DNA of 64,000 bases from assembly GCA_963700495.1 (NCBI GenBank), contig CAVOXT010000002.1, forward strand, positions 72,075-136,074, read 5' to 3'. The stretch comes from an uncultured Actinomycetes bacterium (GTDB taxonomy: Bacteria; Actinomycetota; Thermoleophilia; Gaiellales; Gaiellaceae). Position 1 is the first letter of the stretch. Each line of letters begins with the position of its first letter. A program made the position numbers and the translations under genes. The notes below the pieces were generated by a model. The model had not been told where the DNA came from and ran no database searches. It was given only the letters and a program-made list of their open reading frames with translations. Below are positions 10,960-64,000 of the stretch, in pieces.

Positions 10960-11408
10960 TGCGCGGCCAGCCGGACCGCGTCGAAGATCTTCGCGTAGCC
11001 GGTGCAGCGGCAGAGGTTGCCCGAGAGCGCCTCGCGGATCTCGTCGTCGTTCGGGTTCGCGTTGTGCGCGAGCAGGTCGGCGGTCGCGACGACGAGGCCG
11101 GGCGTGCAGAACCCGCACTGCACGGCGCCGGCCTCGACGAACGCCTCCTGCACGCGGTGCAGCTCGCCGTTCTCCGCGAGGCCTTCGACCGTGACGACGT
11201 CGTGCCCGTCGGCCTGCGCGGCGAGCACGAGACACGCGCAGACGAGCGTGCCGTCGAGGAGCACGGAGCACGAGCCGCACTCGCCCTGCTCGCACGCGTT
11301 CTTCGAACCCGGGAGCCCGAGCCGCTCGCGCAGCGCGAAGAGCAGGCTCTCGCCCTCCCAGACGTCGGCCTCGCGCGGCTCGCCGTTGACGGTGAGCTCG
11401 ATCTTCAT
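10956..11408 (-). CDS. (2Fe-2S)-binding small subunit of xanthine dehydrogenase family enzyme
   Basis: ORF 10956..11429, with the start taken at MKIELTVNG. The cluster motifs 'CEQGECGSCSV' and 'CGFCTPG..CRCTGY' are present. Confidence 0.9.
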   Translation of the reverse strand: MKIELTVNGEPREADVWEGESLLFALRERLGLPGSKNACEQGECGSCSVLLDGTLVCACLVLAAQADGHDVVTVEGLAENGELHRVQEAFVEAGAVQCGFCTPGLVVATADLLAHNANPNDDEIREALSGNLCRCTGYAKIFDAVRLAAQ

Positions 11409-12197
11409 GCGAGACACCGTCGAGCGCACGCTTCGTCAGGACGCGCAGCGCGTGCCGGCGGTACGCGGCCGTCCCGCGGACGTCGTCGATCGGGCTCGCG
11501 GCCTCGGCGACGCGATCCGGAAACGACTCGACCTCGTCCACGCCCTGCGCGCACGAGCGTCGGCACCGGGACCCGCGGAGCCGAAGGCGGCGCGGAGCTC
11601 GTCGCGCTCGACGCGCAGCGCGAGCGACACGACCGCGATCACCATCGCGTTGCGCGGCCCGACCTTCATGAACGTCTCGCCGGCCGGACGCGACGGGCGA
11701 GCACCACGGCGACGATCAGCTCGTCGTCCGCGAGGACGTTCCGCTTCGGCCCGACGACGAAGTCCTGCGAGCGCGACGCGTGCGCTCGCCGCGCACGCTC
11801 GCGAGCTCGACGTCCGTCTCCGCGACGAGCAGCGGCGGCAGCGCGTCCCCGGCCGGCGACGCGGTGCCGAGGTTGCCGCCGATCGTGCCGCGGTTCCGGA
11901 TCTGCGGCGAGCCGACCGTGCGCGACGCTTCGGCGAGGGCCGGCAGCAGGCTCGGCGAGCGGCTCCTCCATCGCCTCGGCGTACGTCAGCCCGGCGCCGA
12001 GCCGGAGCGTCCCGTTCTCGCGCGACCAGCCGCGCAGCTCGGGCACTTCGTTCAGGTTCAGCAGGGTCGGCGGGCGCAGCCGGTCGAAGTTGAGCCCGAC
12101 CATCACGTCCGTGCCGCCCGGGATCGGAACGGCGTCCGGGCGCTCCGCCTTCAGCCGCAGCGCCTCCGTCGAGCGACTGCGGACTGAGGACGTCCAC
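11405..12197 (-). pseudogene. FAD-binding (CoxM/XdhB-like) medium subunit (about 5-6 frame breaks)
   Basis: Recognisable pieces are scattered over three frames: 'DVLSPQSLD', then 'EALRLKAERPDAVPIPGGTDVMVGLNFDRLRPP', 'GSPQIRNRGTIGGNLGTASPAGD', 'DFVVGPKRNVLADDELIVAVVL', 'FMKVGPRNAMVIAVVSLAL' and 'IDDVRGTAAYRRHALRVLTKRAL'. Confidence 0.75.
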
Positions 12198-12226
12198 GGC
12201 GTCTAAGGGTAGTACGTTAGGCGCGT

Positions 12227-13925
12227 ATGCCCGACCTGGCGCGCCGCCTAGCCGTCGCCCGCGGGGACGAGCCTGCCGACCTCGTCGTGCGCGGCGGCCG
12301 CGTGCTCTCCGTGTTCACGCGCGAGTGGCTCGAGGTCGACGTCGCCGTCGTCGACGGGTTCGTCGCCGGCCTCGGCGACTACGAAGGGCGCGAGACGCTC
12401 GACGCATCGGGCCGCTACGTCGTGCCCGGCTTCATCGACGCGCACATGCACCTCGAGTCGTCGAAGCTGCTGGTGGACGAGTTCGCGCGCCTCGTGCTCC
12501 CGCTCGGCACGACGGCCGTCGTCGCCGACCCGCACGAGATCGCGAACGTGCTCGGCACCGACGGCGTGCACTGGCTGCTCGACGCGTGCGACGACCTGCC
12601 GCTCGACGTGTTCTTCATGGCGTCGTCGTGCGTCCCCGCGTCGCAGCTTCGAGTCGCCGCGGCGCGAGCTGACGCACGGGCGACCTCGAAGGGCCTGCTC
12701 CGGCGGCGGCGCGTGCTCGGGCTCGCCGAGATGATGAACTTCCCCGGCGTCATCGCCGGCGACGAGCGCGAGCTCGAGAAGCTCGCGGCTCGACGGCGCG
12801 TCGCACGTCGACGGCCACGCGCCGGGCGTCCTCGGAAAGCGGCTCAACGCCTACGCGGCCGCCGGCATCCGCTCCGACCACGAGGCGTACACGGCGGAGG
12901 AAGGGCGGCGAGCGGCTCCGCGCGGGGATGTGGCTCCTGATCCGCGAGGCGTCCGACGGCGCGGAACCTCGAAGCGCTGCTGCCGCTCGTCCGTGAGTTC
13001 GGGCCGGCTCGGATCGCGTTCTGCACCGACGACCGCGAGCCCGAGCACATCGTCGACGAGGGCCACGTGAACTCGATGGTGCGCGCGAGCGTCGCGCAGG
13101 GGATCGCCCCCGAGGACGCGCTCGTGATGGCCTCGCACAACGCGGCCACATGGCACGGGCTCACGCAGCTGGGAGCGATCGCGCCCGGGTATCAGGCCGA
13201 TCTGCTCGTGCTGCCCGACCTCGAGCGGTTCGAGCCGGAGCGCGTCCTCAAGCGCGGGCGACCCGTCGGCGAGTTCGCGAGCCCGCAGGTCCCGGAGTGG
13301 GTCAAGCACACGGTCCGCGTCGCGCCGATGACTCCTGCCCGACTTCGACCTCCGCTCCACAGGAGGCCCGGTCCGCGTGATCGGCGTCGTCCCCGATCAG
13401 ATCGTGACCGACTCGCTCGTCGAGGAGCCGACCATGCGCGACGGCAGCATCGCGACGGACCCCGAGCGCGACCTCGCGAAGATCGCGGTCGTCGAGCGCC
13501 ACCTCGGGACGGGACGCATCGGGCTCGGCCTCGTCCGCGGCTTCGGGCTCCGCCAGGGCGCGCTCGCGTCGACGATCGCGCACGACGCGCACAACATCGT
13601 CGTCGTCGGGGCGAGCGACCGCGATCTGCACCGCGCGGTCGAGCGGCTCGTCGAGCTCGGCGGCGGCATCGTCGTCGTGTCCGAGGGGAGCGTGCGCGCG
13701 GAGCTGCCGCTTCCCGTCGCAGGCCTGCTGTCCGACCTGCGGCTCGACGAGGTCGTCAGGGCGAGCCGGGCGTGCGTCGAGGCTGCGCGCGCGCTCGGGT
13801 GCACGCTTCCTTCGCCCTTCCAGTCGCTCGCGTTTCTCGCGCTGTCGGTCATCCCGAGCCTGAAGATCACCGACCGGGGCCTCGTCGACGTCGACCGCTT
13901 CGAGCTGGTGCCGCTCGAGGTGTGA
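12227..13925 (+). pseudogene. ade: adenine deaminase (at least 6 frame breaks)
   Basis: The N-terminus lies in ORF 12227..12940 ([33 protein letters not shown]). The middle lies at the start of 13067..15019 (APGYQADLLVL). The C-terminus lies in 13377..13925 (IAHDAHNIVVVG, GGGIVVV). Around 12640-12700 three breaks occur within about 60 nt and the frame is then restored. Confidence 0.85.
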
Positions 13926-52045: not shown

Positions 52046-52052
52046 GGCAGCG

Positions 52053-53475
52053 ATGAGGGTCCTCTTCATCACCTACTGCTTCGGGGATCCAGCGGGCCAG
52101 GCGCTGATCGGGGTCTACAAGCGCGGGCTTCGCGTCGCTCTCGAGCTCCACGACCGCGGCCACGACGTGCTCTTCGACTGCACCGGACGCGGCAGCTACC
52201 GCGACGACCTGACCGAGTTCGCGGAGGACCGGATCCACTTCGTCGACCTGGGCCTCTACGACGGCGAGAACGACGGCTCGGAGCGGAGCCGGCAGAACTC
52301 CCTGCAGGCGATGTCGCGTTGCCGGCCCGACCTCGTCGTCGTCGGCGAAGCACCACTTGCCGGGACGCTCCTGGAGGCAACTCTGTGCGCGGTCGAGCTC
52401 GGCATACCGGTCGCGCTCCTCGACAACGCCTACAACGCGCGAGCGGTCCGGCGTTTCCTCAGGGACCACGGCGGGATGGTGGATGCCGTCGTTCTCACCG
52501 GCCCGAGCTGCGCGCACACGGGGGCGCCGCCCGCACACCTTCGGCAGGTACCGCCTTTCGTGACGAGCGCGCGGTCGGAGGCAGCGCTGCTGGTCGAGGA
52601 ACGCCTGGGGCTTCGCGCAGAGCGACTCGTCTGCATCCTGGCCTATGACGGCAAGGTCGAGCGACTCGGTTTCTCGCTCATCGAGAGCCTCGACGCGCCT
52701 GAGGCGGCGTACGTCTTCATGTCGAGAGATCCCGAGGAGTGTGAGCGGCGTGCGGCGGCGCTTCCCGAAGATCTGAGGGCGCGAGTCCGGGTGCTCGAGC
52801 TGCTCCCGGATCCGCTCCTGTTCGGACTGATCGAGCTGTCCAGCCTCGCGGTCGTCAAGTACGGGTTCATGCAGGTCACCGAATGCATGTCGCTCCGCAC
52901 ACCGGTGATCTGCGCGTACCACGAGGGCCCAACGTGGCTCGATCTGCTTCCTGGAGCGTGCCGGTCGTTCGTGCACGCGGCGGAGCACGAAGACGCAGAC
53001 CCGGCAACGGTCGCCGCGGCCGGGAGGTTTCTCGAGGTCGGCGAGCGGGCGATGGCCTCCATCCACGACGGCGAGTTCGATGCGAGCGTTCGGGCGGCCG
53101 ACTTCCTGGAGGCCGTACCGGCAGAGCCAGCGCCGAGAAGCGTCGACCGAAGCCGTCCGAAAGTTCCCCGAGAAGCAGGTGCGCGCCGCCGTCCGCGCAG
53201 CAACGGGGCGCCGGTCGGTCAGCGTCCTGCTCATGCGCGCGATGCGGCTACGTTCGCTCCCGGGCGAGGAGGTGCATTCGCTCGTCTGCCGCTACACGAT
53301 CGACGGCGCCGAGCGCTTCCTGCGGCTCTGGGGGCACCGCTACGCCTCGGGCCGGGCGGTCAAGCGCGGACGGAGGGAGGCCGCTCGCTCCGGGAGACGG
53401 GTGCTCTTCGCGTCGCCGCGCGAGCGCGTGCTGATCGAATCGGATCTTGGTCAATCGATGCTTCCGCCGCTGTAG
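52053..53475 (+). pseudogene. GT-B-like protein with novel C-terminal domain, tandem copy A (frame break near 53125)
   Basis: This is the first 358 codons of ORF 52053..54908 plus ORF 53080..53475. By comparison with copy B, the C-terminus (SVSVLLMRAMRLRSLPGEEVHSLVCRY..RFLRLWGHRYASGRA) is in the other frame and ends at the TAG at 53473-53475. Confidence 0.7.
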
Positions 53476-53477
53476 GG

Positions 53478-54908
53478 ATGAGGGTCCTCTTCATCACCTA
53501 CTGCTTCGGGGAGGTCTCGGGGCAGGCTCTCATCGGGGTCTACAAGCGCGGGCTGCGCATCGCTCTCGAGCTCCACGACCGAGGCCACGAGGTGCTCTTC
53601 GACTGCACCGGACGCGGCACCTACCACGATGACCTGACCGAGCTCGCGGACCAGCGGCTGCAGTTCGTCGACCTCAACCTCGACGCCGTCGACGAGGAAG
53701 GCCTGGAGCGGAGCCGCGAGAGGGCCCTGCAGGCGATGTCCCGCTGCCGGCCCGATCTCGTCGTGGTGGGCGAGGCGCCGATGCTCGGCACGCTGCTCGA
53801 GGCCACCCTGTGCGCCGTCGAGCTCGGCATACCGGTCGCGCTGCTCGACAACGCCTACAGCGCGCACGCGGTGCCGTACTTCCTTCGGAACCACGGCGGG
53901 ATGATGGACGGCGTTGTCCTGACAGGCCCGAGCTGCACGCATGCGGAGACGGCGCCCGCACACGTCCGCCAGGTTCCGCCGTTCGTGACGACCGCCTCGT
54001 CGGAGGCAGCCCAGCTGGTCGAGCACCTCGGGCTCCGACAGGAGCGCTTGGTCTGCGTCCTGGCGTATGACTCGAAGGTCGAGGGGCTCGGCTTCTCGCT
54101 CGTCGAGCGCCTGCGCGCACCCGACATCGATGTTCTCTTCTTGTCCCGATCCCCAGAGGAGAGCGAGCGGACGGCAGCCCGTCTGCCGGCGGAGCTCCGC
54201 GCCCGCGTCCGGGTGCTCGGCTTGCTTCCGGATCCGCTTCTCTTCGGACTGATCGAGCTGTCCAGGCTCGCGGTCGTCAAGTGCGGGTTCATGCAGGTCA
54301 CCGAGTGCATGGCGCTCAGGACCCCGGTGATCTGCGCATACCACGACACCGCGACGTGGCTCCGGTGGGTGCCCCGCGCCTATCTGCCGTTCGTCCACAT
54401 TGCGGAGCACGACGAGGCGGACCGAGCGACACTTGCCGCCGCCGCGCGTCTCTTCGACGTCCCCGAGCAGGCGATGAGCTCGATCCATGACGGGTCGTTC
54501 GACGCGACAGCCAGCGCGGCCGACTTCCTCGAAGGCCTGTCCGCGGAGCAGCGTCCGGAGACATGGACCGAGACCGTCGACGTCTTCCCCGAGACACAGG
54601 TGCGAGAGGCACTGCGCACGGCTGTGGGAGGACAGGAGGTCAGCCTGCTGCTGCTGCGCGCGATGCGCCTGCGCGCCCTCCCGCGCGAGGAGGTGCATTC
54701 GCTCGTCTGCCGGTGCAGGGTCGACGGCGGCGAGCACTTCCTTCGCCTGTGGGGTCACCGCTACGCCTCGGGACGCGCGGCGAAGCGGGCGCAGCGGGAG
54801 GCCGTTCGCTCAGGGCGACAGGTGCTCTTCGCGTCGCCGCGCCGGCGCGTGCTGATCGAACCGGACCTCGGTCAGGAGCTGCTGCCGCCGTTGCTCGGCG
54901 CCCACTGA
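53478..54908 (+). CDS. GT-B-like protein with novel C-terminal domain, tandem copy B
   Basis: This is the internal Met476 of ORF 52053..54908. The sequence 'MRVLFITYCFGEVSGQALIGVYKRGL..' is colinear with copy A along its full length. Confidence 0.75.
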   Translation: MRVLFITYCFGEVSGQALIGVYKRGLRIALELHDRGHEVLFDCTGRGTYHDDLTELADQRLQFVDLNLDAVDEEGLERSRERALQAMSRCRPDLVVVGEAPMLGTLLEATLCAVELGIPVALLDNAYSAHAVPYFLRNHGGMMDGVVLTGPSCTHAETAPAHVRQVPPFVTTASSEAAQLVEHLGLRQERLVCVLAYDSKVEGLGFSLVERLRAPDIDVLFLSRSPEESERTAARLPAELRARVRVLGLLPDPLLFGLIELSRLAVVKCGFMQVTECMALRTPVICAYHDTATWLRWVPRAYLPFVHIAEHDEADRATLAAAARLFDVPEQAMSSIHDGSFDATASAADFLEGLSAEQRPETWTETVDVFPETQVREALRTAVGGQEVSLLLLRAMRLRALPREEVHSLVCRCRVDGGEHFLRLWGHRYASGRAAKRAQREAVRSGRQVLFASPRRRVLIEPDLGQELLPPLLGAH

Positions 54909-56377
54909 TCGCGCAGCGCGTGACTGAGAGCCTGCGCGGCAAACTCGAACGCCGCAGGGGCAAGCGCGGCCGACCAGCCGACCACCGCGCCCGGATTCCG
55001 AATCGTCGCGCGGGCTGCGGCACGCGGAGTGCCGCCTCCCGCACCGCGGCCGCCGAGCGCCAGGACGGCCGTTCCGGCGGCCGATCGCACGGTCTGCTCG
55101 ATCGCCGCCGTGATCATGCGCCGAGACGCAGCGTCACGCGCCGGAAGCACACCGACGAGGATGCCGCCGGCGGTGTCGGCGAAGACAGGATCGCGCCGCG
55201 CGCGGGCGGCGAGCGTCCGGAGCGTCCCCAGCCAGATCCCGTTCAACGACCGGTTCTTGATCAGCGCCACGATCATCTGCGCGAGCGCCATGTCGTAGCG
55301 CACGTGCTCGCGCACCTGTCGGGCGTACGGGGTCAGCCCTTCCTGCGAGCAGTCGCCGCTTCTGATCGCCGTGCCCACTGCGTTCGCCGCCCACTGCCCC
55401 GACAGCAACGCGTACTGAATCCCCTCGCCGTTCAGCGGGTTGATCAGGCCGGCGGCGTCACCGACCAGCACCATCCGGTCGCCGACGAGCGGCTGCCGCG
55501 GGTCGAAGGTCGCGAGAGGCCAGCCCACGATCTTGCCTTCGAGACGCGCACCGTCGAGCCGCTCGCCGAGAGCACGATCGCGGCGGACGAGCTCGAGCAG
55601 TAGCTCGCGCAGGTGTTGCGTCGTTCGGGGCACCGTCTGAAGCGCCATGCCGACTCCCACGTTCGCTTCGCCGTCGCCGTTCGGGAAGACCCAGGTGTAG
55701 CCGGGGAACGACTGTTCGGAGAAGTACAGATCCGCGCGGTCCGCTCGGCCGTTGACGCCCGTGTAGTAGCCGCGCACGGCGATGATCCGACGGTCCCTCC
55801 GCGAGTCTCCGCCCCGAAGGATGCGGGCCATCTGCGAGTTCGAGCCGTCCGCGCCTACGACGACTCGGGCCCGCAGCGAGCGCTTCGCCTGCCCCGCCTG
55901 CACGACGACCTGCACCCCGTCGAGGTCGCGGCGGACCTCCGCGATCTTGCAACCGTCGAGCAGCGCAGCCCCGGACTCGATCGCGGTCTCGACAAGCCAC
56001 TGGTCGAGGACGGTACGAGGGATCACGCGACCGAGTGCGGGCATGCCTTCGACCGGCGGGAGCGAGCGAACGATCAGCTCTTCCCCGTCCAGGAAGAGTG
56101 CGGCTTCGCGCACGCAGTTGGTGCGCAGGTACTCCTTTCGCCCGCCGAAGCCGAGCCGTTGCAGCTCGAGCAGGGCGACCGGGCCGACGAAGTCTCCGCA
56201 CACCTTGTCGCGCGGGAAACGCTTGTGGTCGAGCAGGACCACGCTGAATCCCGCGCGGCACAGGTGGGCCGCTGTGGCGGCACCCGCCGGCCCGGCGCCG
56301 ACGACAACGACGTCGGCGTCGTGGGCCTGGGCGGGTCGGTGTGCGACTACCGGCGGTCGGTCAGCGCTTGCGGACAA
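54872..56377 (-). CDS. geranylgeranyl-reductase-family FAD oxidoreductase, paralogue 2
   Basis: 'DVVVVGAGPAGAATA', 'FPRDKVCGDFV', 'VVGADGSNS' and 'LVGDAAGLINPLNGEGI' are colinear with the 24141..25628 gene, but on the opposite strand. Confidence 0.85.
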   Translation of the reverse strand: MSASADRPPVVAHRPAQAHDADVVVVGAGPAGAATAAHLCRAGFSVVLLDHKRFPRDKVCGDFVGPVALLELQRLGFGGRKEYLRTNCVREAALFLDGEELIVRSLPPVEGMPALGRVIPRTVLDQWLVETAIESGAALLDGCKIAEVRRDLDGVQVVVQAGQAKRSLRARVVVGADGSNSQMARILRGGDSRRDRRIIAVRGYYTGVNGRADRADLYFSEQSFPGYTWVFPNGDGEANVGVGMALQTVPRTTQHLRELLLELVRRDRALGERLDGARLEGKIVGWPLATFDPRQPLVGDRMVLVGDAAGLINPLNGEGIQYALLSGQWAANAVGTAIRSGDCSQEGLTPYARQVREHVRYDMALAQMIVALIKNRSLNGIWLGTLRTLAARARRDPVFADTAGGILVGVLPARDAASRRMITAAIEQTVRSAAGTAVLALGGRGAGGGTPRAAARATIRNPGAVVGWSAALAPAAFEFAAQALSHALRDQWAPSNGGSSS

Positions 56378-56756
56378 GTCCGAGCTGCGTGGCGGCTCCG
56401 AGCTCGTCAGTCAGTCCGAAGGTCTCGACTACGCGACCTTTCTCGAACCGAAGAATGGTGATCCCACTGACGTCCAGCGCCTTGCCGGTGCCCTTGACGC
56501 TGCCGAACAGTGCGTGCTTTGCGGCTCCCTTGTGGGTGCCGGTCGCCGACCACCGAACGACGACCTTTTCGCCTTCCGCGATCATGTCTTCGAGCTCGAT
56601 CTTGAGGTCAGGCAACGCCCGCGTAGCAGCCTTGGCACTCGCAGCGCCTCCTTCCTTCAGGTTGGTCCCGAGCACCTTCTGGGCGGCGGCAAGGTCGCCG
56701 GTGGCGAGCTTGTCGAAGACACGCTTGGTCAGCGCGCGATTCTCTTTTGCCGGCAT
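56361..56756 (-). CDS. SnoaL-like ester/polyketide cyclase family protein
   Basis: ORF 56361..56801, with the start taken at MPAKENRAL. Motifs are 'PDLKIELEDMIAEGEKVVVRWSATGTHKG' and 'ILRFEKGRVVETF'. Confidence 0.7.
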   Translation of the reverse strand: MPAKENRALTKRVFDKLATGDLAAAQKVLGTNLKEGGAASAKAATRALPDLKIELEDMIAEGEKVVVRWSATGTHKGAAKHALFGSVKGTGKALDVSGITILRFEKGRVVETFGLTDELGAATQLGLVRKR

Positions 56757-56853
56757 TTCGAACTCCCCTCTGACGGACTTGGCGCGAAGTCGCTTCACCA
56801 CGTCGTCGGCAAGGGCGAGCAGTGGCTGGCCGCTGGACTTCGTACTGCCGACT

Positions 56854-57624
56854 TTAGCGCAGTGAACTCGCCGTGTCAGTTCGAAATTCCAGCGCGTGCG
56901 TCACCAGCCGCCAGTCGTCACCTTCGACCGCGAGGGCGGCGGCGAAGCCGTCGTCCGCTGCCGGCTCGACGAGCTTCCACCGTTGCGGCTCGTCGGCACC
57001 TCTCGCCGACCTGAGCAACGCGGGAGGAGCCCCCGGCTCGAGCGACACGTCAAAGGAGTCCAGCCGCATCGCAAGGCCGGTTCCACACGCTTTGATGTAC
57101 GCCTCCTTGCGCGTCCAGCACCGGTAGAAAGCCGCCACCCGGTCGTGTGCAGGCAGAGCCTTCAGCGACGCTGCCTCGGCCGGTGAGAAGAAGTGGTCGG
57201 CGATCCCGACGACGTCGCGGTCGCGTCGAACGTCTTCGAGATCGACCCCAAGCTCGCGGTCGACGCTGACCGCGATCAGCGCCCTGTCCCCGGAGTGGGC
57301 GAGATTGAAGCGCATCCCGCCGTTGCGGGCGAGATACGGCTTTCCATATCGGGCACGGGCGAACTGGACATCCTCCGGAGCAACTCCCAGATAGCCGCCC
57401 AGGAGATGCCGGAGCACGCCATGGGCGACGGAGTAGCGAACGCGGTGCCGCTCGAAGACGAAGCGCCCCGCGCGGGCGCACTCGTCCGGGTCGAGGCTGC
57501 TCCCGAGCGCCCGAAGCGCGTCCTCGGGCGGTTCGAGCCGCGTGCGCCACACGTGCACCTCGCCTCGGCGGATGACGAGATCGTCCGCGCGAACGGGAAA
57601 TACGACTGTCGACCGGGCCGCCAA
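56854..57624 (-). CDS. Sfp-type 4'-phosphopantetheinyl transferase
   Basis: Motifs are 'FNLAHSGD', 'LGVDLE' and 'CWTRKEAYIKA'. Confidence 0.85.
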   Translation of the reverse strand: MAARSTVVFPVRADDLVIRRGEVHVWRTRLEPPEDALRALGSSLDPDECARAGRFVFERHRVRYSVAHGVLRHLLGGYLGVAPEDVQFARARYGKPYLARNGGMRFNLAHSGDRALIAVSVDRELGVDLEDVRRDRDVVGIADHFFSPAEAASLKALPAHDRVAAFYRCWTRKEAYIKACGTGLAMRLDSFDVSLEPGAPPALLRSARGADEPQRWKLVEPAADDGFAAALAVEGDDWRLVTHALEFRTDTASSLR

Positions 57625-57631
57625 GGCCGTC

Positions 57632-58098
57632 CTAACCGGCAGCGTCCACTTCCACGCCCTCGCACGCCAGCACGAGCTCCTCGATCACGACCTCGTTCCC
57701 CTTCGCGTTCAGGGTCGGGCCGGTGTACTTGACCGGCCAGGCGGCGTGAACCAGCCAGCGCCGGACGGGGCTTCGCTCGGCGTCGTTGAGCACGATCGTC
57801 ACGTTCCGCCGGACGAGGTTCCACCGCGGATCTCGTCGAACCAGCGATAGAGGTCGAGGTCGGACGAGACGCCGCGCCGGAGCGTCACGTTCCCATACCG
57901 GACTCGCCCCGGAAGCTTGCGCGACCCCGAGCCCGCGTCGGTCCCCTCGCGATACTCGATCACGTCGATGCTCGCATCGGGCACGTGGACCTCCGCGAAC
58001 GCGGCGCTGCCGATTCCGTCGATCTCGACTGAGAAGTTGAAGTTCGGGTACGGGGCTCGGTCACGTAGGGCGGCACGCGGAGACGTTAGAACGCGCAC
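57632..58098 (-). pseudogene. phage T4 gp19-type tail-tube family protein (one frame break near 57815)
   Basis: ORF 57799..58152 carries 'PNFNFSVEIDGIGSAAFAEV..IEYREG..RKLPGRVRYGNVTLRRG..LYRWF'. After 'IRGG' the family C-terminus (NLVRRNVTIVLNDAERSPVRRWLVHAAWPVKYTGPTLNAKGNEVVIEELVLACEG) continues in another frame to the TAG at 57632-57634. The start is taken at the in-frame GTG at 58098. Confidence 0.7.
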
Positions 58099-58139
58099 AG
58101 CCGCCGCGCAAATGGCGCGCTGCGCTCTAATACCGACTG

Positions 58140-58508
58140 ATGACGGAACCACTCGCGCAGATGAAGTGCGTCGCGTGTCGCCGCGACGCGCCGACCGTGT
58201 CGGATGCCGAGATCGCCGAGCTCCTGCCGGAGATCCCGGACTGGGAGCTCCTCGAGCTCGACGGCATCAAACGCCTCCAGCGGGTCTTCTCGTTCGACGA
58301 CTTCGCGCAGGCGCTGGCGTTCACGGACGCTGTCGGCCGGCTCGCGGAAGAGGAGGGGCATCATCCCGCGCTGCTGACCGAGTGGGGCCGGACGACGGTC
58401 ACCTGGTGGACGCACAAGATCAAGGGGCTGCACCGGAACGACTTCATCATGGCCGCGAAGACCGACCGGCTCCCCGGGCCGAGGAAAGAGGTCGCAGAGC
58501 CCGCGTAA
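58140..58508 (+). CDS. phhB: 4a-hydroxytetrahydrobiopterin (pterin-4a-carbinolamine) dehydratase
   Basis: Motifs are '[29 protein letters not shown]' and '[19 protein letters not shown]'. Confidence 0.85.
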
Positions 58509-58571
58509 GGAATCTCCCGCGGCGCGGTTGTGGAGACAGGAATCGCATCCACGACCGAAGGGAGATTCACC

Positions 58572-59153
58572 ATGAAACTCCGGATCCCGTTCCCCACGAC
58601 CATCGTCTTCATCGTCGTCCTCGTGCTCGCACTCGCCGGCACGGCGACGGGAGCGGCGCTCATCACGGGCGCTCAGATCCAGAACAACACGGTCAGCAGC
58701 CTCGACCTCAAGAACAACTCCGCGGCAAGCGTCGACGTGGCGAACAATTCGCTAACGACGCTCGACGTCAAGGACGGCTCGCTGCAGTCGGTCGACTTCG
58801 CACCGGGCCAGCTCACCTCCGGGCCGGCCGGTCCGGCCGGGCCCGCCGGGCCCGCAGGCCCCCAGGGGCCCGCAGGACCCCAGGGCGTTGCCGGGCTCTC
58901 GGCGGTCCAGATCGTGAGCAGCTCCACCCCGAGCAACTCCGTCAACTCCAAGGTTGCGAACGTGTCCTGCCCGGCAGGCAAGCAGCTCGTCGGCGGCGGC
59001 GCGCACATCTGGGACGCCGGTGGGAGCGTCGCTCTCGACGAGAGCTACCCGACCAGCGCGTCGAGCTGGCGGGCAACCGCGTACGAGATCAACGCGACCG
59101 CAGTCAACTGGCACGTCGAGGCCTTCGCGATCTGCGCGATCGTGGCCCCGTAG
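58572..59153 (+). CDS. membrane-anchored collagen-like repeat protein
   Basis: The ATG at 58572 follows a GGGAG Shine-Dalgarno sequence, inside ORF 58530..59153. An N-terminal TM/signal anchor is followed by four NN-x3-S-x-D decapeptides, GPAGPAGPAGPAGPQGPAGPQG, and a Cys-containing globular tail. Confidence 0.75.
   Translation: MKLRIPFPTTIVFIVVLVLALAGTATGAALITGAQIQNNTVSSLDLKNNSAASVDVANNSLTTLDVKDGSLQSVDFAPGQLTSGPAGPAGPAGPAGPQGPAGPQGVAGLSAVQIVSSSTPSNSVNSKVANVSCPAGKQLVGGGAHIWDAGGSVALDESYPTSASSWRATAYEINATAVNWHVEAFAICAIVAP
58821..58886 (+). repeat. coding G-X-Y (collagen triple-helix) triplet repeat, 7 units
   Basis: (GPA)4-GPQ-GPA-GPQ is encoded by an imperfect 9-nt periodic DNA repeat. Confidence 0.8.
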
Positions 59154-59179
59154 CAAACCAAATCCTCCTCCGGACGACC

Positions 59180-59208
59180 CCGAGCGCGGCGAATCCCGCC
59201 GCGCTCGG
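59180..59208 (+). terminator. 12-bp perfect stem-loop CCGAGCGCGGCG-aatcc-CGCCGCGCTCGG
   Basis: It lies 27 nt after the collagen-like gene stop. There is no U-tract, which is common in high-G+C genomes. Confidence 0.5.
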
Positions 59209-59244
59209 ACCCGTGTGGGCGGCTGGCTGCTCACGCCATGCGCC

Positions 59245-61179
59245 ATGATCAGCAGCGTGAGCTCGATCGTGCCTCGCGCGGCGTTTCTCATCGTGCTCGC
59301 GGCGGTCGTGCTCGCACTCGTGCCGGCGGCCGGTGCAAGCCTCGCCGACGAGACCGAGCTCGCGGAGCGGTATGCACCCGTCGTGCGACTCGTCCAGCAG
59401 CCCGAGGAGTGCGGCCCGGGCGAGCCCTACCAGCCGATGGACGTCGAGCTCCTCTTCGACGAGCCGACCGTGGCGCTCCGAGGGCCGTGGAATCCCACCG
59501 ACCTCGTGAAGATCGGCCCGGACGCAGGCGACCTCGCCGGTCTCTACGAGTACCACCTCGATTTCCCGGGGGACGCCCTGAATCCCGGGTGCGACTACGA
59601 GCGCTGGGCGCGCAGGCTCACCACAGGCCACAACCCGGCCGTCTACGCCCACGTGGCCACCGACCCCGGCTACCCCGGCAAGCTCGCGCTGCAGTACTGG
59701 ATCTTCTATCCGTACAACGACTGGAACAACCTGCACGAGGGCGACTGGGAGAACATCCAGCTGATCTTCGACGCGGGGAGCGCTGCCGAAGCGCTCACGG
59801 GCGAGCCGGTCTCCGTCGGCTACAGCCAGCACGAGGGGGCCGAGGGCGCTTCCTGGGGCGACGACAACCTCACGATCGCCGACGGCACACACCCGGTCGT
59901 CTATCCGGCCGCCGGGTCGCACGCGAACTTCTTCGACGACTCGCTCTACGTCGGGAGCTCCGCGCAACAGGGTGTCGGCTGCGACGACACGCGCGGCCCA
60001 CACGTCGAGTACCGCCCGACCGTTCTCACGATCCCGAGCGACCCGGGACAGGCGAGAACAGACTTTCCGTGGATCGCCTTCGAAGGGCGCTGGGGCGAGC
60101 TCCAAGAGGCGTTCTTCAACGGCCCGACGGGCCCGAACCTCAAGAAGTCGTGGACCGAGCCGATCGCCGTATCCGAAGACTGGAGAGACCGGAGCTACGC
60201 GGTTCCCGTCGGCGGTGTTCTCGGCACGGGAGCCACCGACTTCTTCTGCTCTGCGGTCGGGACGGGCTCCATGGGTCTCGTCAGGTTGCTCCGAAGCCCC
60301 CTCATCACGCTCGGTGCGCTCGCGGTGCTCCTCGGCATCCTCCTGTTCGCCTTCTCGCGCACGACCTGGCGGCCGGTTGCGCCGCTCCGGCTCGCGCGGC
60401 GCAGGAGCTGGGGACAGGTTCTCAGCTCGTCAGGACGCATGTACGTCCACCGGATTCGCCTCTTCCTCGGCATCGGACTGCTGCTGTTCCCGGTCGTCGT
60501 CGTGACGACGCTGCTACAGAGTCTCGTAATCGGCGGAGCACGTCTTCTCGGTGTCGAGCCCGAGGGCGAGGCCGGAGGTGCGCTCGTGCTGGTTGTCGTC
60601 GGAGTCGGCACGACGCTGACCGTGTTCGGGCTGGCACTCGTGCAGGCGGCGACGGCCTGTGCGCTCGTCGAGATCGACGAGGGTCGAACGATCGGGCCTG
60701 TCGAGGCGTACCGGCTGGCACTCAGGAGAGCGCGTCCCTTGCTCGGAGCGGTCGCGATCGCAGTCGCAATCTGGTTCGTGCTCTCGAGCACCATCGTCCT
60801 CCTCCCCGTTGCGATCTGGCTCGCGGTTCGCTTCGCGCTCCTTGCCCAGGTCACGGAGCTCGAGGACACGTCGGCTGTCGGTGCGCTGAGGCGGAGCTCG
60901 CGGCTCGTGCGACGGCACTGGCTCAAGATCGCGTCCCTCGTGGGAGTCGGCGCCGCGGTGGTGATAGCAGCCGGACCCTTCCTCGGCGCGCTCCTGATCC
61001 TGCTCACGAGCTTCCCGCTCGCGTTCCTCAACCTCGTCGCGGGGGTCGTGTACGTGCTCGCAATGCCGTTCGTCGCGTTGGCGACGTGCTACCTGTACTT
61101 CGACACGCGAACGCGGCTCGAGCTCGACGCGACGGATGAGTCGGACGAGCTTCCCGCCGAGATTCAGCTCTCGACGTAG
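59245..61179 (+). CDS. Vps62-like (DUF946-type) extracytoplasmic domain fused to a polytopic membrane domain
   Basis: The ATG at 59245 lies inside ORF 58954..61179. A signal anchor is followed by 'YAPVVRLVQQPEEC', 'LQYWIFYPYNDWNNLHEGDWENIQLIF' and then about 7 hydrophobic helices. Confidence 0.7.
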   Translation: MISSVSSIVPRAAFLIVLAAVVLALVPAAGASLADETELAERYAPVVRLVQQPEECGPGEPYQPMDVELLFDEPTVALRGPWNPTDLVKIGPDAGDLAGLYEYHLDFPGDALNPGCDYERWARRLTTGHNPAVYAHVATDPGYPGKLALQYWIFYPYNDWNNLHEGDWENIQLIFDAGSAAEALTGEPVSVGYSQHEGAEGASWGDDNLTIADGTHPVVYPAAGSHANFFDDSLYVGSSAQQGVGCDDTRGPHVEYRPTVLTIPSDPGQARTDFPWIAFEGRWGELQEAFFNGPTGPNLKKSWTEPIAVSEDWRDRSYAVPVGGVLGTGATDFFCSAVGTGSMGLVRLLRSPLITLGALAVLLGILLFAFSRTTWRPVAPLRLARRRSWGQVLSSSGRMYVHRIRLFLGIGLLLFPVVVVTTLLQSLVIGGARLLGVEPEGEAGGALVLVVVGVGTTLTVFGLALVQAATACALVEIDEGRTIGPVEAYRLALRRARPLLGAVAIAVAIWFVLSSTIVLLPVAIWLAVRFALLAQVTELEDTSAVGALRRSSRLVRRHWLKIASLVGVGAAVVIAAGPFLGALLILLTSFPLAFLNLVAGVVYVLAMPFVALATCYLYFDTRTRLELDATDESDELPAEIQLST

Positions 61180-61190
61180 CGAGCATGCCG

Positions 61191-62336
61191 CTAGTCCGGG
61201 ACGGGATCGAGCAGGTCGATCTTCAGCGAGTGCTCCGAGTCGCCGGGGAAGCGAACCTCGTAGCCGCGCCCGCTCCTGCGCTCCTTTTCGACGAACCCCT
61301 TCAGCCGCTTCCCCAGTTCGTTGGTGCCGTCGCCGTACGTCAGGTGGAGGACGAAGTCGTCGTCATCCCGGGCGTCCGAGATCATCTGCATCGTGGCCAT
61401 TTCGGGGTTGTCGTCCGTACCGTCCGCAGAGACGACGTAGTGGTCGGCGACGATCTGCCGAAAGAAATCGGTCTCCACGTTCCGGTCGCTGCCGTGGTGC
61501 GGGAGCTTGAGGATGTCGACGTGAAGCGGCGGGTGATCGAGCAGTCCGGCGCTGCGTAGCCCGGCGAGGATGTCGTCGCCGCGACCGTCACCGGTGAGGA
61601 GCATCCGTTTCTCCTCGACCTTCGCGAGGACGACGATGCTGGACAGGTTGTACACCGACCGGTCGAGGTAGCCCGCGATCGTCGCGTTTGACGGCGCTCG
61701 GTCGCGGACGTCGCGTTCCCAGCGCTTCTGGAGATCCGCGAGGCGATCCGGGTCCGGGCCGATGACCGTCAGCTCGAGCCCGTCGCCCCAGTCGACCGTG
61801 CGCGGCGCGACGACCGTGCCGTCGAAGGGCCGATTCACGTCGAGCGCAAGCGCCGTCGCCGTGTCGCGCAGCCGGCGTCCCTGCGCGATGCTCGCGACGA
61901 CGAGCTGCGCCGGCTTGCTGAGGCCGGCTGAGCCTGTCGGCGAGCCGGTTGCGAGTGCGGACACCGCCGCCGGGACGCTCGCCGGGCCACCGCCGCCCAC
62001 GATGTCCTCGAAGCTGTTGTGCCAGAGGGCGAGGACCTCGAAGCTCCCGTCGCTTCCGTCCTCCTGTTCCTGCGCGAGCTGCTCGACGAGATCGAGCACG
62101 CCCCTGACATGGTCGTCGTCGATGTGGCTGACGACGACCAGCTGGAGCTGCAGCGCACGGTCTGGGTCGCGGCTAGCGCGGAGCTCGTCGAGCCTCGGCC
62201 GGAGGGTCCGTTTGTAGACGCCGCTCGGCCCTCCGTCGATCACCGCGACCAGCGGACCGTCGGTGGGGCCGTAGTGGAGGATCAGGCTGTCGCCCTGGTC
62301 TGCCTGGAGCGCCTCCAGCGTGAAGATCAAGCTCAC
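61191..62336 (-). CDS. ComEC/Rec2-type metallo-beta-lactamase-fold hydrolase (standalone)
   Basis: The GTG at 62336 overlaps the subtilase stop (GTGA), inside ORF 61191..63458. Motifs are 'GDSLILHYG', 'VVVSHIDDDHVRG' (the H-x-D-x-DH variant), 'MLLTGDG' and 'LKLPHHGSDRN'. There is no signal peptide. Confidence 0.8.
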   Translation of the reverse strand: MSLIFTLEALQADQGDSLILHYGPTDGPLVAVIDGGPSGVYKRTLRPRLDELRASRDPDRALQLQLVVVSHIDDDHVRGVLDLVEQLAQEQEDGSDGSFEVLALWHNSFEDIVGGGGPASVPAAVSALATGSPTGSAGLSKPAQLVVASIAQGRRLRDTATALALDVNRPFDGTVVAPRTVDWGDGLELTVIGPDPDRLADLQKRWERDVRDRAPSNATIAGYLDRSVYNLSSIVVLAKVEEKRMLLTGDGRGDDILAGLRSAGLLDHPPLHVDILKLPHHGSDRNVETDFFRQIVADHYVVSADGTDDNPEMATMQMISDARDDDDFVLHLTYGDGTNELGKRLKGFVEKERRSGRGYEVRFPGDSEHSLKIDLLDPVPD

Positions 62337-63970
62337 ACCGCCTGCAGCGCGCGCAGGACGTCGAGCATGCCGTTGCCCTGGAAGTACCGTTCGCGACCGA
62401 GGTCGGTCGCGTTCTCGCAGAGCACCCGCTTGATGCGCTCGGGCTGCCCGATGAACTCGTGGTAGCGGGCCATCAGCAACGCCGCCGCGGCGCTGACGTG
62501 TGGTGCCGCCATGCTCGTGCCGTCCATGGTGCTGACCCTCCGACCCGGGATCGGCGAGGTGATCTTCTCGCCCGGCGCGACGAGATCCGGCTTCAGCCGC
62601 CCGTCGCCCGTCGGCCCGCGGCTCGAGAAGTACGAGACGCCGTAGGAGTGCGGCTCGAAGCGGTGCGTCGCGCCCACGGTGATTACGCCCTGGGCGTTGC
62701 CGGGGTCGGTGATGCTGATGCTCCGGTACCCCTCGCTCGACTCGCCCTGCATCGTCTGGAAGCGCGCATATCCGTCGTTGCCGGCCGCGGCGACCACCAC
62801 AGTCCCGGCTCCAACCAGCCGCTCGCATTCCTCGCACACCGGTGTTCGGCCGCACGCGTAGTTCGCAACGTCGTGACGAATCGAAAGGCTGGCGTTGACG
62901 CCGTGGACAAGGACTCGATCCTTGTTCGCGTTCAGGTAGCGGACGAACTGCAGCGCTGCGATCAGCGAGAACTCGTCCCCGTTGCCGTCCGCGTCCAGCA
63001 CCCGCAGGTCGTACAACTCGAGCCCGGCGGCGACGCCGAGGAGGTTTGCTTCGTTCGGCATGCCCTCGTCGCTGACCCGCCAGTCGGCGGTCAGGATTCC
63101 CGCCACGTGGGTGCCGTGCTCGTGCGCGGGCGGCACGTACGTCGTCGGCTCGTGTGGAACGCTCAGGAGCGGTTCGAGTGCGAGCCAGTCGATCGCCCGG
63201 CCGGCCTTCAGGGCGCGACGGAAGTCGCTGACACGCGCGCGGTCGTCGCGGCTCAACTGATGCTCGCTCAGATCGGCGTCCGGGTTCAGGAGCCGCCGCA
63301 GGCGAGTGAAGTCGTAGGTCGCGACGATCCGTGTCCGGTTTCGGGCCGGTGACCCCCGGCGCGCGGCCTCGAACGGCTCCGGGTACGGGTCGCCCTTCTC
63401 GTCGCGCTTGCGAAAGGCGGGATGGGTTGCGTCGATGCCGCTGTCGACCACACCCCACCGAAGCGAGCTGCAGCTCAGGTCGAACAGGCGCACCGCCGCA
63501 TCGGCCTTGACCGCGAGGATCGAGCGCGAGATGGCCGGACTGGCGGGACGGTTCCTGTCGACCCGCCAGAGCAGATCCGTGGGCAGCGGCTCGGTCAGGT
63601 CGCCCTCCGCGACCAGGTCGAGCACAGCCTCGACGAGCTGCTCGTTCGACGGCTCGGCCTTCGCGCGTTTGCGCCGGCGCTCAAGCTCGATTCTCCCGAC
63701 GATCCGGATCAGCCAGAGCAGGTCGGGCGACACATCGCCTCCGAAGCCGGAGGGGCCGGTGTCCGACAGCTGCTCGGCGATCCGCTTCTTCACCGCCGGG
63801 TCGCGGAGCTTCTCGACGTGGCTCAGGTCGGCCTTCGTGCGCCAGACGTGTTCGCGCCACCAGTGCGTGAGCGGGAGCGCGACCTTCACCAGCTCTTCGA
63901 ACTCGAGCTCCGCGACGACGTACGACTCGTTGTAGGCGACTCGTACCTCGGCTGGGTGGTCCTGCCTCAT
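62333..63970 (-). CDS. S8 (subtilisin) family serine peptidase, cytoplasmic type with ~175-aa N-terminal extension
   Basis: The catalytic triad is 'VVDSGIDATHP' (Asp), 'HGTHVAGIL' (His) and 'GTSMAAPHVS' (Ser). There is no signal peptide. The ATG directly abuts the TAG of the upstream gene. Confidence 0.9.
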   Translation of the reverse strand: MRQDHPAEVRVAYNESYVVAELEFEELVKVALPLTHWWREHVWRTKADLSHVEKLRDPAVKKRIAEQLSDTGPSGFGGDVSPDLLWLIRIVGRIELERRRKRAKAEPSNEQLVEAVLDLVAEGDLTEPLPTDLLWRVDRNRPASPAISRSILAVKADAAVRLFDLSCSSLRWGVVDSGIDATHPAFRKRDEKGDPYPEPFEAARRGSPARNRTRIVATYDFTRLRRLLNPDADLSEHQLSRDDRARVSDFRRALKAGRAIDWLALEPLLSVPHEPTTYVPPAHEHGTHVAGILTADWRVSDEGMPNEANLLGVAAGLELYDLRVLDADGNGDEFSLIAALQFVRYLNANKDRVLVHGVNASLSIRHDVANYACGRTPVCEECERLVGAGTVVVAAAGNDGYARFQTMQGESSEGYRSISITDPGNAQGVITVGATHRFEPHSYGVSYFSSRGPTGDGRLKPDLVAPGEKITSPIPGRRVSTMDGTSMAAPHVSAAAALLMARYHEFIGQPERIKRVLCENATDLGRERYFQGNGMLDVLRALQAV

Positions 63971-64000
63971 CTACGTCTCCACCGAGCCGCTGGCGCAGGA
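63971..64000 (-). CDS. 3' end of an upstream co-oriented gene (runs off the right edge)
   Basis: The minus-strand reading '..SCASGSVET' ends at the TAG at 63971-63973, immediately followed by the subtilase ATG. Only 9 codons are visible. Confidence 0.3.
   Translation of the reverse strand, partial: SCASGSVET

Follow-up and report, generated by a model that had tools for sequence, protein, structure and literature searches.

A cytoplasmic subtilase encoded ahead of a ComEC-type metallo-beta-lactamase fold protein in an uncultured Gaiellaceae bacterium: a probable two-gene protease/pro-nuclease cassette

What does a subtilisin-like protease without an export signal do directly ahead of a stand-alone, ComEC-type metallo-beta-lactamase (MBL) fold protein, and how many genes belong to the module that the two of them form? 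The question is raised by the right-hand end (positions 61191–64000, minus strand) of a 64,000-nucleotide stretch of DNA from an uncultured Actinomycetes bacterium of the family Gaiellaceae (GenBank contig CAVOXT010000002.1, positions 72,075 to 136,074; the whole stretch is called the window below), where two open reading frames (ORFs) are tightly packed. The original prediction, made from the DNA alone, described a candidate defence module of three or more genes, in which a protease and a nuclease-like hydrolase are delivered together. Our analysis leads to a different picture: the locus is probably a self-contained two-gene cassette, in which the protease would license a DNase that is made as a pro-nuclease. 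We favour this reading because of homology, gene anatomy and strict synteny; the cleavage itself, the DNase activity, the anti-phage role and the sensing are carried over by analogy from related systems. The features on which the argument depends, all on the minus strand, are as follows.

62333–63970, minus strand: the S8 subtilase ORF in its window form, 545 amino acids (aa); from the ORF list, the Pfam family Peptidase_S8 and the PADLOC model 'subtilase'.
61191–62336, minus strand: ComEC-type MBL-fold protein, predicted pro-nuclease, 381 aa when read from GTG; from PADLOC, NCBIfam, an AlphaFold2 (AF2) model and a fold match.
63973, minus strand: one additional nucleotide, T on the gene strand, compared with an intact orthologue; from pairwise DNA alignment with the related contig L009, described below, and from multi-locus DNA alignments.
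63974–64000, minus strand: 5' part of the same S8 gene in another frame, reading ...LRQRLGGD; from three-frame translation, with the homologous LRQRLGGDEM in L009.
63110–63442, minus strand: conserved insert of about 110 aa between Asp and His of the subtilase (TRIVATYDFT...GRAIDW...LEPLL); from the Asp-His spacing of 112.
62109–62129, minus strand: metal-binding motif SHIDDDH (HxDxDH) of the MBL, with invariant H71, D73, D75 and H76 in alignments A2 and A5.
61479–61505, minus strand: LPHHGSDRN motif, common to ComEC; from a hidden Markov model alignment to the ComEC chains 9ic4 and 9vc6.
61896–62000, minus strand: variable insertion 1 of the MBL, aa ~113–147, candidate gating loop; from model confidence (predicted local distance difference test, pLDDT), column entropy and alignment position.
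61671–61718, minus strand: variable insertion 2 of the MBL, aa ~207–222, candidate second gating loop; from a dip in pLDDT, entropy and alignment A5.

As regards the protease, the earlier description of a subtilase with an intact catalytic triad and without a signal peptide holds. Peptidase_S8 spans residues 173–534 (E 2.7e-42), the PADLOC model (PDLC03014) matches at 8.6e-40, and the catalytic set is complete in the window ORF, with D176 at 63443–63445, H288 at 63107–63109, N398 at 62777–62779 and S486 at 62513–62515. The insert between Asp and His had likewise been read correctly, the distance of 112 residues being unusually long, and in alignment A4 the insert has R284, D290, F291, G327, D331 and W332 as invariant residues. 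Hydropathy profiles of the two proteins contain no signal peptide, other export signal or transmembrane segment, the highest Kyte-Doolittle mean over 19 residues being 1.08–1.20. The coupling of the two genes is also as first described, namely, the TGA stop of the protease gene and the GTG start of the MBL gene overlap by 4 nucleotides (nt; GTGA), as is evident from the ORF coordinates and from the letters themselves. In relatives and in the source annotation, the MBL start is placed at a TTG two codons downstream of this GTG, giving a protein of 379 aa.

The second protein is, as had been claimed, a stand-alone MBL-fold protein with the motifs SHIDDDH (aa 70–76) and LPHHGSDRN (aa 278–286), and its invariant positions are the HxDxDH motif (aa 71–76), D250 and HHGS (aa 280–283). 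Defence-associated MBL models of PADLOC cover it over nearly its full length: LmuA (PDLC03854) matches at 2e-46 over aa 5–334, Avs1a at 2e-28, RTasMBL at 1.5e-27 and PDC-M48B at 1.9e-14. The NCBIfam model of Avs1a matches at 6.8e-38 with 130 bits, which is far under its equivalog cut-off of 420 bits, and for this reason the protein is, on profile scores, to be regarded as a relative of Avs1a and not as its orthologue. The ComEC/Rec2 model TIGR00361, on the other hand, gives an E value of only 0.0067, and a profile search of the Protein Data Bank by sequence returns only ComEC, weakly. The AF2 model, built with 45 homologues, is of high confidence (pLDDT 91.7, predicted template modelling score 0.92), with its weakest stretches at about 111–140 and 211–230. 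Among solved structures, the best fold match is to the MBL domain (266 aa) of Moorella glycerini ComEC (9ic4, E 2.6e-13, template modelling score 0.71 on the target); the pneumococcal phosphorylcholine esterase Pce comes next.

What distinguishes this protein from the MBL domain of ComEC is found between its motifs. The profile alignment to ComEC is anchored by the HxDxDH motif and by a segment of the form SxVxL...PHHGS, and the stretch from HxDxDH to SxVxL takes up about 160 residues here versus about 78 in ComEC. The roughly 80 extra residues make up the two segments that vary most within the MBL family, i.e. the insertions at aa ~113–147 and ~207–222. Insertion 1 contains the blocks of lowest pLDDT (76/70/59) and the highest column entropy, insertion 2 coincides with a dip in pLDDT to 81/84, and both fall in the alignment where the MBLs associated with Lamassu or ABC-three-component (ABC3C) systems at loci L013 and L014 have their variable loops. 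Within the loops, position 139 is L, I or V in 51 of 77 non-redundant MBLs and is followed by Ser in 25 of the 77, a weak preference, while position 220 is a variable aliphatic residue that precedes the invariant A221. L139-S140 and x220/A221 may thus be put forward as candidate cleavage sites, albeit weak ones.

The significance of such insertions has become apparent through two recent studies. Tuck et al. (Science 2025; PMC12799240) described the MBLs of Hachiman (HamM), of AVAST (Avs1a) and of a new caspase system, Canu (CanC), as 'gated' pro-nucleases, in which two disordered insertions obstruct a ComEC-like active site; cleavage by the partner protease, at I118 and I218 in HamM and at I134 and I234 in Avs1a, turns the protein into an indiscriminate DNase and leads to abortive infection (PMC12799240). 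Similarly, Evans et al. (bioRxiv 2025; PMC12642450) found that VcMBL is cut at I133/S134 and at I232/S233, and that the cut protein is a Zn-dependent nuclease acting on double-stranded DNA. The MBLs associated with proteases fall into three clades, with trypsin-like, caspase/CHAT and S8 subtilisin-like partners, respectively (PMC12799240, legend of fig. S2; PMC12642450, where the last is 'Clade 3'), and the experiments in both papers covered the trypsin and caspase clades only (PMC12799240, PMC12642450). Our literature searches found no other paper on the subtilase-associated clade. In other words, the pairing of a subtilase with an MBL, which the original prediction did not know as a named system, is already recorded in the literature of 2025, where it is listed phylogenetically and left unnamed, as one of three protease-MBL clades (PMC12799240, PMC12642450).

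The locus studied here belongs to this subtilase-associated branch. Its adjacent protease is of the S8 subtilisin-like type with an intact D/H/N/S set, and, as in the Clade 3 loci (PMC12642450, PMC12799240), this protease stands next to a ComEC-like MBL with loop insertions; the genes of both are co-inherited, widespread across phyla and sometimes found beside defence genes. One difference concerns sensing, in that Evans et al. mention 'distinct sensor associations' in Clade 3 (PMC12642450), whereas the relatives collected here have no conserved separate sensor. The idea that protease and nuclease are delivered together is not supported: according to experiments on homologous pairs, it is by cleavage that the protease activates the nuclease (PMC12799240, PMC12642450).

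As to whether the two genes keep together in other genomes, the answer is positive. We scored 3405 MBL relatives at E ≤ 1e-5, and in all six relatives at 50–97% identity an S8 gene of 615–633 aa lies immediately upstream. We scanned metagenome contigs of soil, sediment and marine origin and obtained 80 further loci. An S8 homologue is found directly upstream on the same strand, usually with a gap of at most 60 bp, in 74 of the 74 loci that have at least about 190 bp of upstream DNA; in the six loci that lack an S8 match, the upstream sequence is shorter than 160 bp. A contig scan that used the S8 protein as its only query yielded just one partial locus, at a contig end. Five further annotated examples come from Actinomycetota, Acidobacteriota and plasmids of Alphaproteobacteria, the pair is present in Pyrinomonadaceae, and in cultured organisms it is often carried on large or conjugative plasmids. 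What is more, the identity matrices of the MBLs and of the S8 catalytic domains are strongly correlated (Mantel r=0.815; none of 999 permutations reached this value), and the two genes therefore travel as a unit. Taken with the matches to defence-system MBL models, the adjacency in every related locus examined bears out one part of the original prediction, namely that the S8 protease, which is cytoplasmic, and the ComEC-type MBL are encoded as a conserved operonic unit with the character of a conflict or defence module.

Is there, then, a third gene? The subtilase ATG does directly abut a TAG (63971–63973), as had been noted, but the TAG does not end a separate upstream gene, as it lies in the same reading frame as the ATG. 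In a three-frame translation, the last 27 nt of the window encode LRQRLGGD in a different frame, and the equivalent of this segment is found at residues ~61–68, i.e. about 65 residues into the intact homologues of 613–633 aa, where it reads LRDRLGGG (L002), LRERLGGR (L003) or LRQRLGGDEM (L009). The last of these loci is a contig from another metagenome (ENA ERZ25039502, contig_97906), which is collinear with window positions 52797–64000 at 94–97% nucleotide identity. Its subtilase gene is uninterrupted and encodes a protein of 615 aa (P0122) that is 97% identical to the window protein, the 545 aa of the latter corresponding to residues 71–615. In the pairwise DNA alignment the window has exactly one extra base, the T at 63973, which creates both the TAG and the frameshift. 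To judge by these alignments, what had been taken for an upstream gene is the 5' part of the subtilase gene itself, which is split by a one-base insertion and starts about 180 nt past the window edge; there is therefore no separate third gene upstream. This also affects the N-terminal extension of the subtilase, put at 175 aa in the original prediction: about 172 residues precede the S8 domain in the window ORF, in agreement with that figure, but the region is about 240 aa long in the intact protein.

Look-ups with the exact sequences of the window's S8 and MBL proteins matched no contig. We read the missing right flank of the window through L009 as a proxy, given the 97% identity of P0122, and extension in that direction reveals no separate operon partner, only the continuation of the same subtilase gene. 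Upstream of it, L009 has about 800 bp without a called gene. Beyond this gap, the opposite strand encodes a PD40/beta-propeller protein, a DUF4231/SLATT_3 protein, a TIR-WD40 protein of 938 aa, an ORF of 63 aa and another TIR protein, and the flank is free of ATPase, STAND and SMC genes. In L009, the intact S8-MBL pair itself takes up positions 10001–12990. An all-against-all clustering of the flanking ORFs of about 85 loci gave no universally conserved neighbour, and across the loci there is no conserved ATPase, STAND or SMC partner; the genes that precede the pair in L006 and in L008, for example, show no relationship to each other. Consequently, a module of three or more genes finds no backing, the upstream gene being a frameshift artefact and no third gene being conserved across the loci. 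There are two partial associations, one of them being with the SLATT and TIR-WD40 genes discussed below and the other with a patatin-like phospholipase, directly adjacent in about 18 of 80 loci: upstream in nine (L026, L027, L039, L050, L056, L070, L080, L084, L088) and downstream in nine (L036, L059–L062, L066–L068, L079), and co-oriented with the pair except in L061. On the plasmid of Miltoncostaea oceani, the S8 and MBL genes are joined by one for a Tle1-like lipase (type VI secretion system Tle1-like; L010 9136–10443). The patatin, or the Tle1-like lipase in the same place, may be a second effector licensed by the protease.

Because no separate sensor gene is conserved, the sensing of infection, or the autoinhibition that it would relieve, probably resides in the subtilase itself, in its N-terminal region of about 240 aa and in the Asp-His insert. 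In the AF2 model of P0122 (pLDDT 79.5), the N-terminal region consists of an alpha/beta module at 1–112 followed by helices at 122–191. An assignment of this region as an I9-like propeptide is unsupported: pro-subtilisins top the fold search, but the template modelling scores fit an alignment of the catalytic domain only.

How might such a cassette work? By analogy with the gated MBLs, the MBL would be made as an inactive zymogen, in which the two insertions cover the active site of a ComEC-like core. A signal of infection or stress would be sensed, presumably by the N-terminal region of the subtilase, by its Asp-His insert or by both; the cytoplasmic S8 protease would then cut both loops of the MBL, and the latter would become a non-specific, metal-dependent DNase, with death or arrest of the cell as the outcome, i.e. 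abortive infection. Gene anatomy, catalytic motifs, homology, the positions of the insertions, adjacency, co-inheritance and the lack of export signals are all observed here. On the other side of the balance, several points weigh against this interpretation. Namely, cleavage, DNase activity and phage defence are extrapolated from relatives associated with trypsin-like and caspase-type proteases, and the covering, and hence the proposed blocking, of the active site by the insertions is a prediction. The loops carry no strongly conserved cleavage motif, only the weak aliphatic-Ser preference at 139/140 and the invariant A221. Our searches brought up no sensor, the N-terminal region of the subtilase having no Pfam match and the whole-protein fold search returning subtilisins only. 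Many of the neighbourhoods are of a housekeeping character, with genes such as those for an amino-acid permease, NadA or gyrase, and placement in defence islands is partial. Finally, the window copy of the subtilase gene is frameshifted.

If the licensing of a DNase by the subtilase is nevertheless the right explanation, the implications are of some interest. Proteolytic licensing of nucleases has been established as a general logic of bacterial immunity only since 2025, and only for proteases of the trypsin and caspase types. The subtilase branch, abundant in soil Actinomycetota and Acidobacteriota as well as on rhizobial plasmids, apparently requires no additional sensor protein, and it thus offers a compact model of how a protease alone may sense infection. 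One can go a step further and propose, tentatively, that the subtilase branch is a minimal two-gene immune system in which the N-terminal region of the protease (the RRFTQDSPVLPDVW motif together with the helical domain) and the Asp-His insert sense infection or autoinhibit, and in which the protease in some loci may also license a second, membrane-directed effector, a proposal that we hold to be possible rather than probable. If true, one protease would control a death switch with several effectors, and its mechanism would set it apart from the STAND, Hachiman and Lamassu versions, which oligomerise. For the window itself, the corrections are that there are two genes and not three, that the protease gene runs past the edge and that a one-base insertion may inactivate this copy.

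This last point deserves to be weighed first among the alternatives, as the window copy may be disabled unless the insertion is an assembly error. The cassette could be a decaying one, in which the insertion is real and 70 conserved residues are lost, or it could work only through a truncated protease re-initiated at Met71; we take this possibility seriously and lean only slightly against it. The extra base relative to the 97%-identical orthologue lies outside any homopolymer, so that it is not a typical sequencing error. Of all motifs that lie outside the catalytic domain, the most conserved one, RRFTQDSPVLPDVW...DLLLTPH, belongs to the detached 70 N-terminal residues; R20, T22, Q23, D24, P26, P29, V31, W32, L47 and P49 are invariant in 40 homologues. 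The source annotation likewise gives only 545 aa, starting at Met71 of the intact protein. A GGAG stands 6 nt before the window ATG, which makes it conceivable that an N-terminally truncated protease could still be made. However, the 545 and 381 codons of the two genes contain no further stop or frameshift, and the ratio of nonsynonymous to synonymous polymorphism relative to L009 is low, at 0.16 for the S8 gene and 0.17 for the MBL gene; therefore, any inactivation would be very recent. What is more, the window seems to come from a metagenome-type assembly, in which an indel of a single base could be an error.

The licensing of a DNase within a pair of genes, which we prefer, has also to be set against readings that change the role of the pair, whether or not the window copy is intact. 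One may suppose that the pair is part of a larger multi-gene system, together with the divergent SLATT (DUF4231) membrane protein and the TIR-WD40 protein of its close relatives. The SLATT gene indeed lies upstream, in divergent orientation, in L002, L003, L009 and L015, with TIR-WD40 nearby in the last three of these, and the 4-nt overlap of the two genes in L009 suggests that they form an operon. Nevertheless, neither is found beside the pair in L004 or in any of the more distant loci, their association being confined to these four closest (Gaiellaceae-like) loci, which are phylogenetically close and amount to roughly one observation. The two genes vary in position and orientation. They have the look of a neighbouring conflict system of their own, just past the window edge, and we consider the larger system unlikely. 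A role outside immunity, such as degradation of DNA in development or under stress, the scavenging of nutrients, or the processing of secreted or peptide products by an S8 protease of the mycosin, LanP or PatA type, strikes us as quite unlikely. It would agree with the many metabolic or housekeeping neighbourhoods, with the fact that no homologue encoded by a phage was found in phage genomes and that no trigger is obvious, and with the weak S8 matches to the mycosin and PatA models. These matches, however, are far under the cut-offs (79 versus 279 bits for mycosin, 23 versus 421 bits for PatA), the proteins lack export signals and membrane anchors, and no conserved precursor, transporter or type VII secretion system genes are found nearby. 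The closest profile matches of the MBL, moreover, are the MBLs of defence systems, and the pair is found on conjugative plasmids next to integrases, insertion sequence (IS) elements and defence genes.

The placement of the pair in defence islands, which the original prediction had in mind, is thus seen in some genomes and is not general. In a scan of nearest neighbours (115 ORFs from 33 loci), matches to defence models are scattered, and include PycTIR and other TIR effectors, E2, dCTPase, ThsA, a single NACHT, pVip and CARF. The conjugative plasmid pCMU01 of Methylorubrum extorquens CM4 (L011) carries the pair as MCHL_RS28290 and RS27515, with an integrase, ImmA/IrrE and IS21 adjoining; immediately upstream of the pair, a trio consisting of an adenylate/guanylate cyclase, an E2-domain and a TIR gene (L011 2567–5813) resembles Pycsar or CBASS. 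In Sinorhizobium medicae, the pair is carried on a plasmid and adjoins a gene for a caspase-family protein. The SLATT and TIR-WD40 genes of the close relatives span L009 3597–9199, L003 2–1071 and 5570–8263, L002 7524–8102, and L015 1365–5743.

It is instructive to compare the pair with the systems that it most resembles. In AVAST (Avs1a-Avs1b-Avs1c, Avs2, Avs4) and in Hachiman (HamMAB), a homologous MBL effector is likewise encoded next door to its protease, and the insertions of the present MBL lie approximately where HamM (I118/I218), EpiAvs1a (I134/I234) and VcMBL (I133/I232) are cut. Here, by contrast, the protease is of the S8 and not of the trypsin-like type, the gene order is reversed, with the protease upstream, there is neither a STAND NTPase nor a HamB helicase, and no Ile-Ser cleavage motif stands out as conserved. 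AVAST type 1 in particular may be set aside: no STAND gene accompanies the pair in L009 or in the other loci (one 'nacht' match among the 115 ORFs), and the protease is an S8 enzyme without a match to Avs1b. The 'hydrolase-protease' version of Lamassu, or ABC3C (MBL, protease-LmuA, LmuC and LmuB), provides the best PADLOC match of our MBL, LmuA, and the MBL of the Providencia ABC3C/Lamassu locus (L013) has all of the core motifs and both insertion sites in common with it. This locus, with its MBL, ABC3C and AAA ATPase genes, serves as a contrast: the protease families differ, and the MBLs are only 26–28% identical. Lamassu itself was rejected, as neither LmuB nor LmuC is among the 25 PADLOC families most frequently matched by the neighbour ORFs, and no ATPase cluster is conserved.

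Canu (CanABC) is similar in layout, being a small stand-alone locus with a non-trypsin protease upstream of a gated MBL nuclease. Its protease, however, is of the caspase/CHAT type with an Ig-like domain, acts with a CanB partner and has conserved Gly cleavage sites, whereas the protease studied here belongs to S8, has an unrelated N-terminal region and is not accompanied by a conserved CanB-like gene. IetAS (the ATPase IetA and the subtilase IetS), the analogy drawn in the original prediction, shares a cytoplasmic S8 protease and an anti-phage context, but has no MBL partner. This analogy does not carry over to the present pair, which lacks an ATPase neighbour, and the IetS models match weakly and over the catalytic core only (9e-9; NCBIfam IteS 19.5 bits against a cut-off of 900). 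ComEC/Rec2, with the closest solved fold and the HxDxDH and PHHGS motifs in common, differs in that our MBL is stand-alone and soluble, has neither channel nor OB domains, and carries about 80 extra residues in two insertions as well as a C-terminal extension; these features, along with the E value for TIGR00361, exclude ComEC proper. Mycosins and other secreted subtilases were likewise excluded, on account of the missing signal peptide or anchor, the low score and the absence of ESX genes nearby.

A few further observations concern the DNA downstream of the pair. On the window side of the pair, the window and L009 have their genes in common, which are metabolic or unannotated. In L009, an extra gene for a 276-aa Lactamase_B protein, with a weak Apyc1-like Pfam flag, directly follows the MBL gene (12995–13825); it is absent from the window, where a clean 810-bp indel lies at 61182/61184, between convergent genes. 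Three plus-strand genes, all unrelated to the module, lie downstream of the MBL gene in the window: one for pterin-4a-carbinolamine dehydratase (58140–58508), one for a small protein that has a hydrophobic segment at its N-terminus and a collagen-like (GPA)n repeat (58530–59153), and one for a protein of 646 aa that is hydrophobic in its C-terminal half and matches Vps62 and GPDPase_memb weakly (59239–61179), the last of which converges on the MBL gene. On the minus strand, at 57799–58152, an ORF of 117 aa resembles the tail-tube protein gp19 of phage T4 (Pfam 9.2e-22, over positions 1–77 of the 134 of the model only); it falls within a stretch of some 430 bp that does not align to L009, and a gp19-like gene is likewise present in L002, close to the S8-MBL pair of that locus. 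Further to the left, window positions 52049–53472 and 54223–54893 match, at 75–77% identity, a region of L009 that is already aligned to 52797–57639, which suggests that the plus-strand segment 52049–54908 consists of tandem paralogous genes without Pfam domains.

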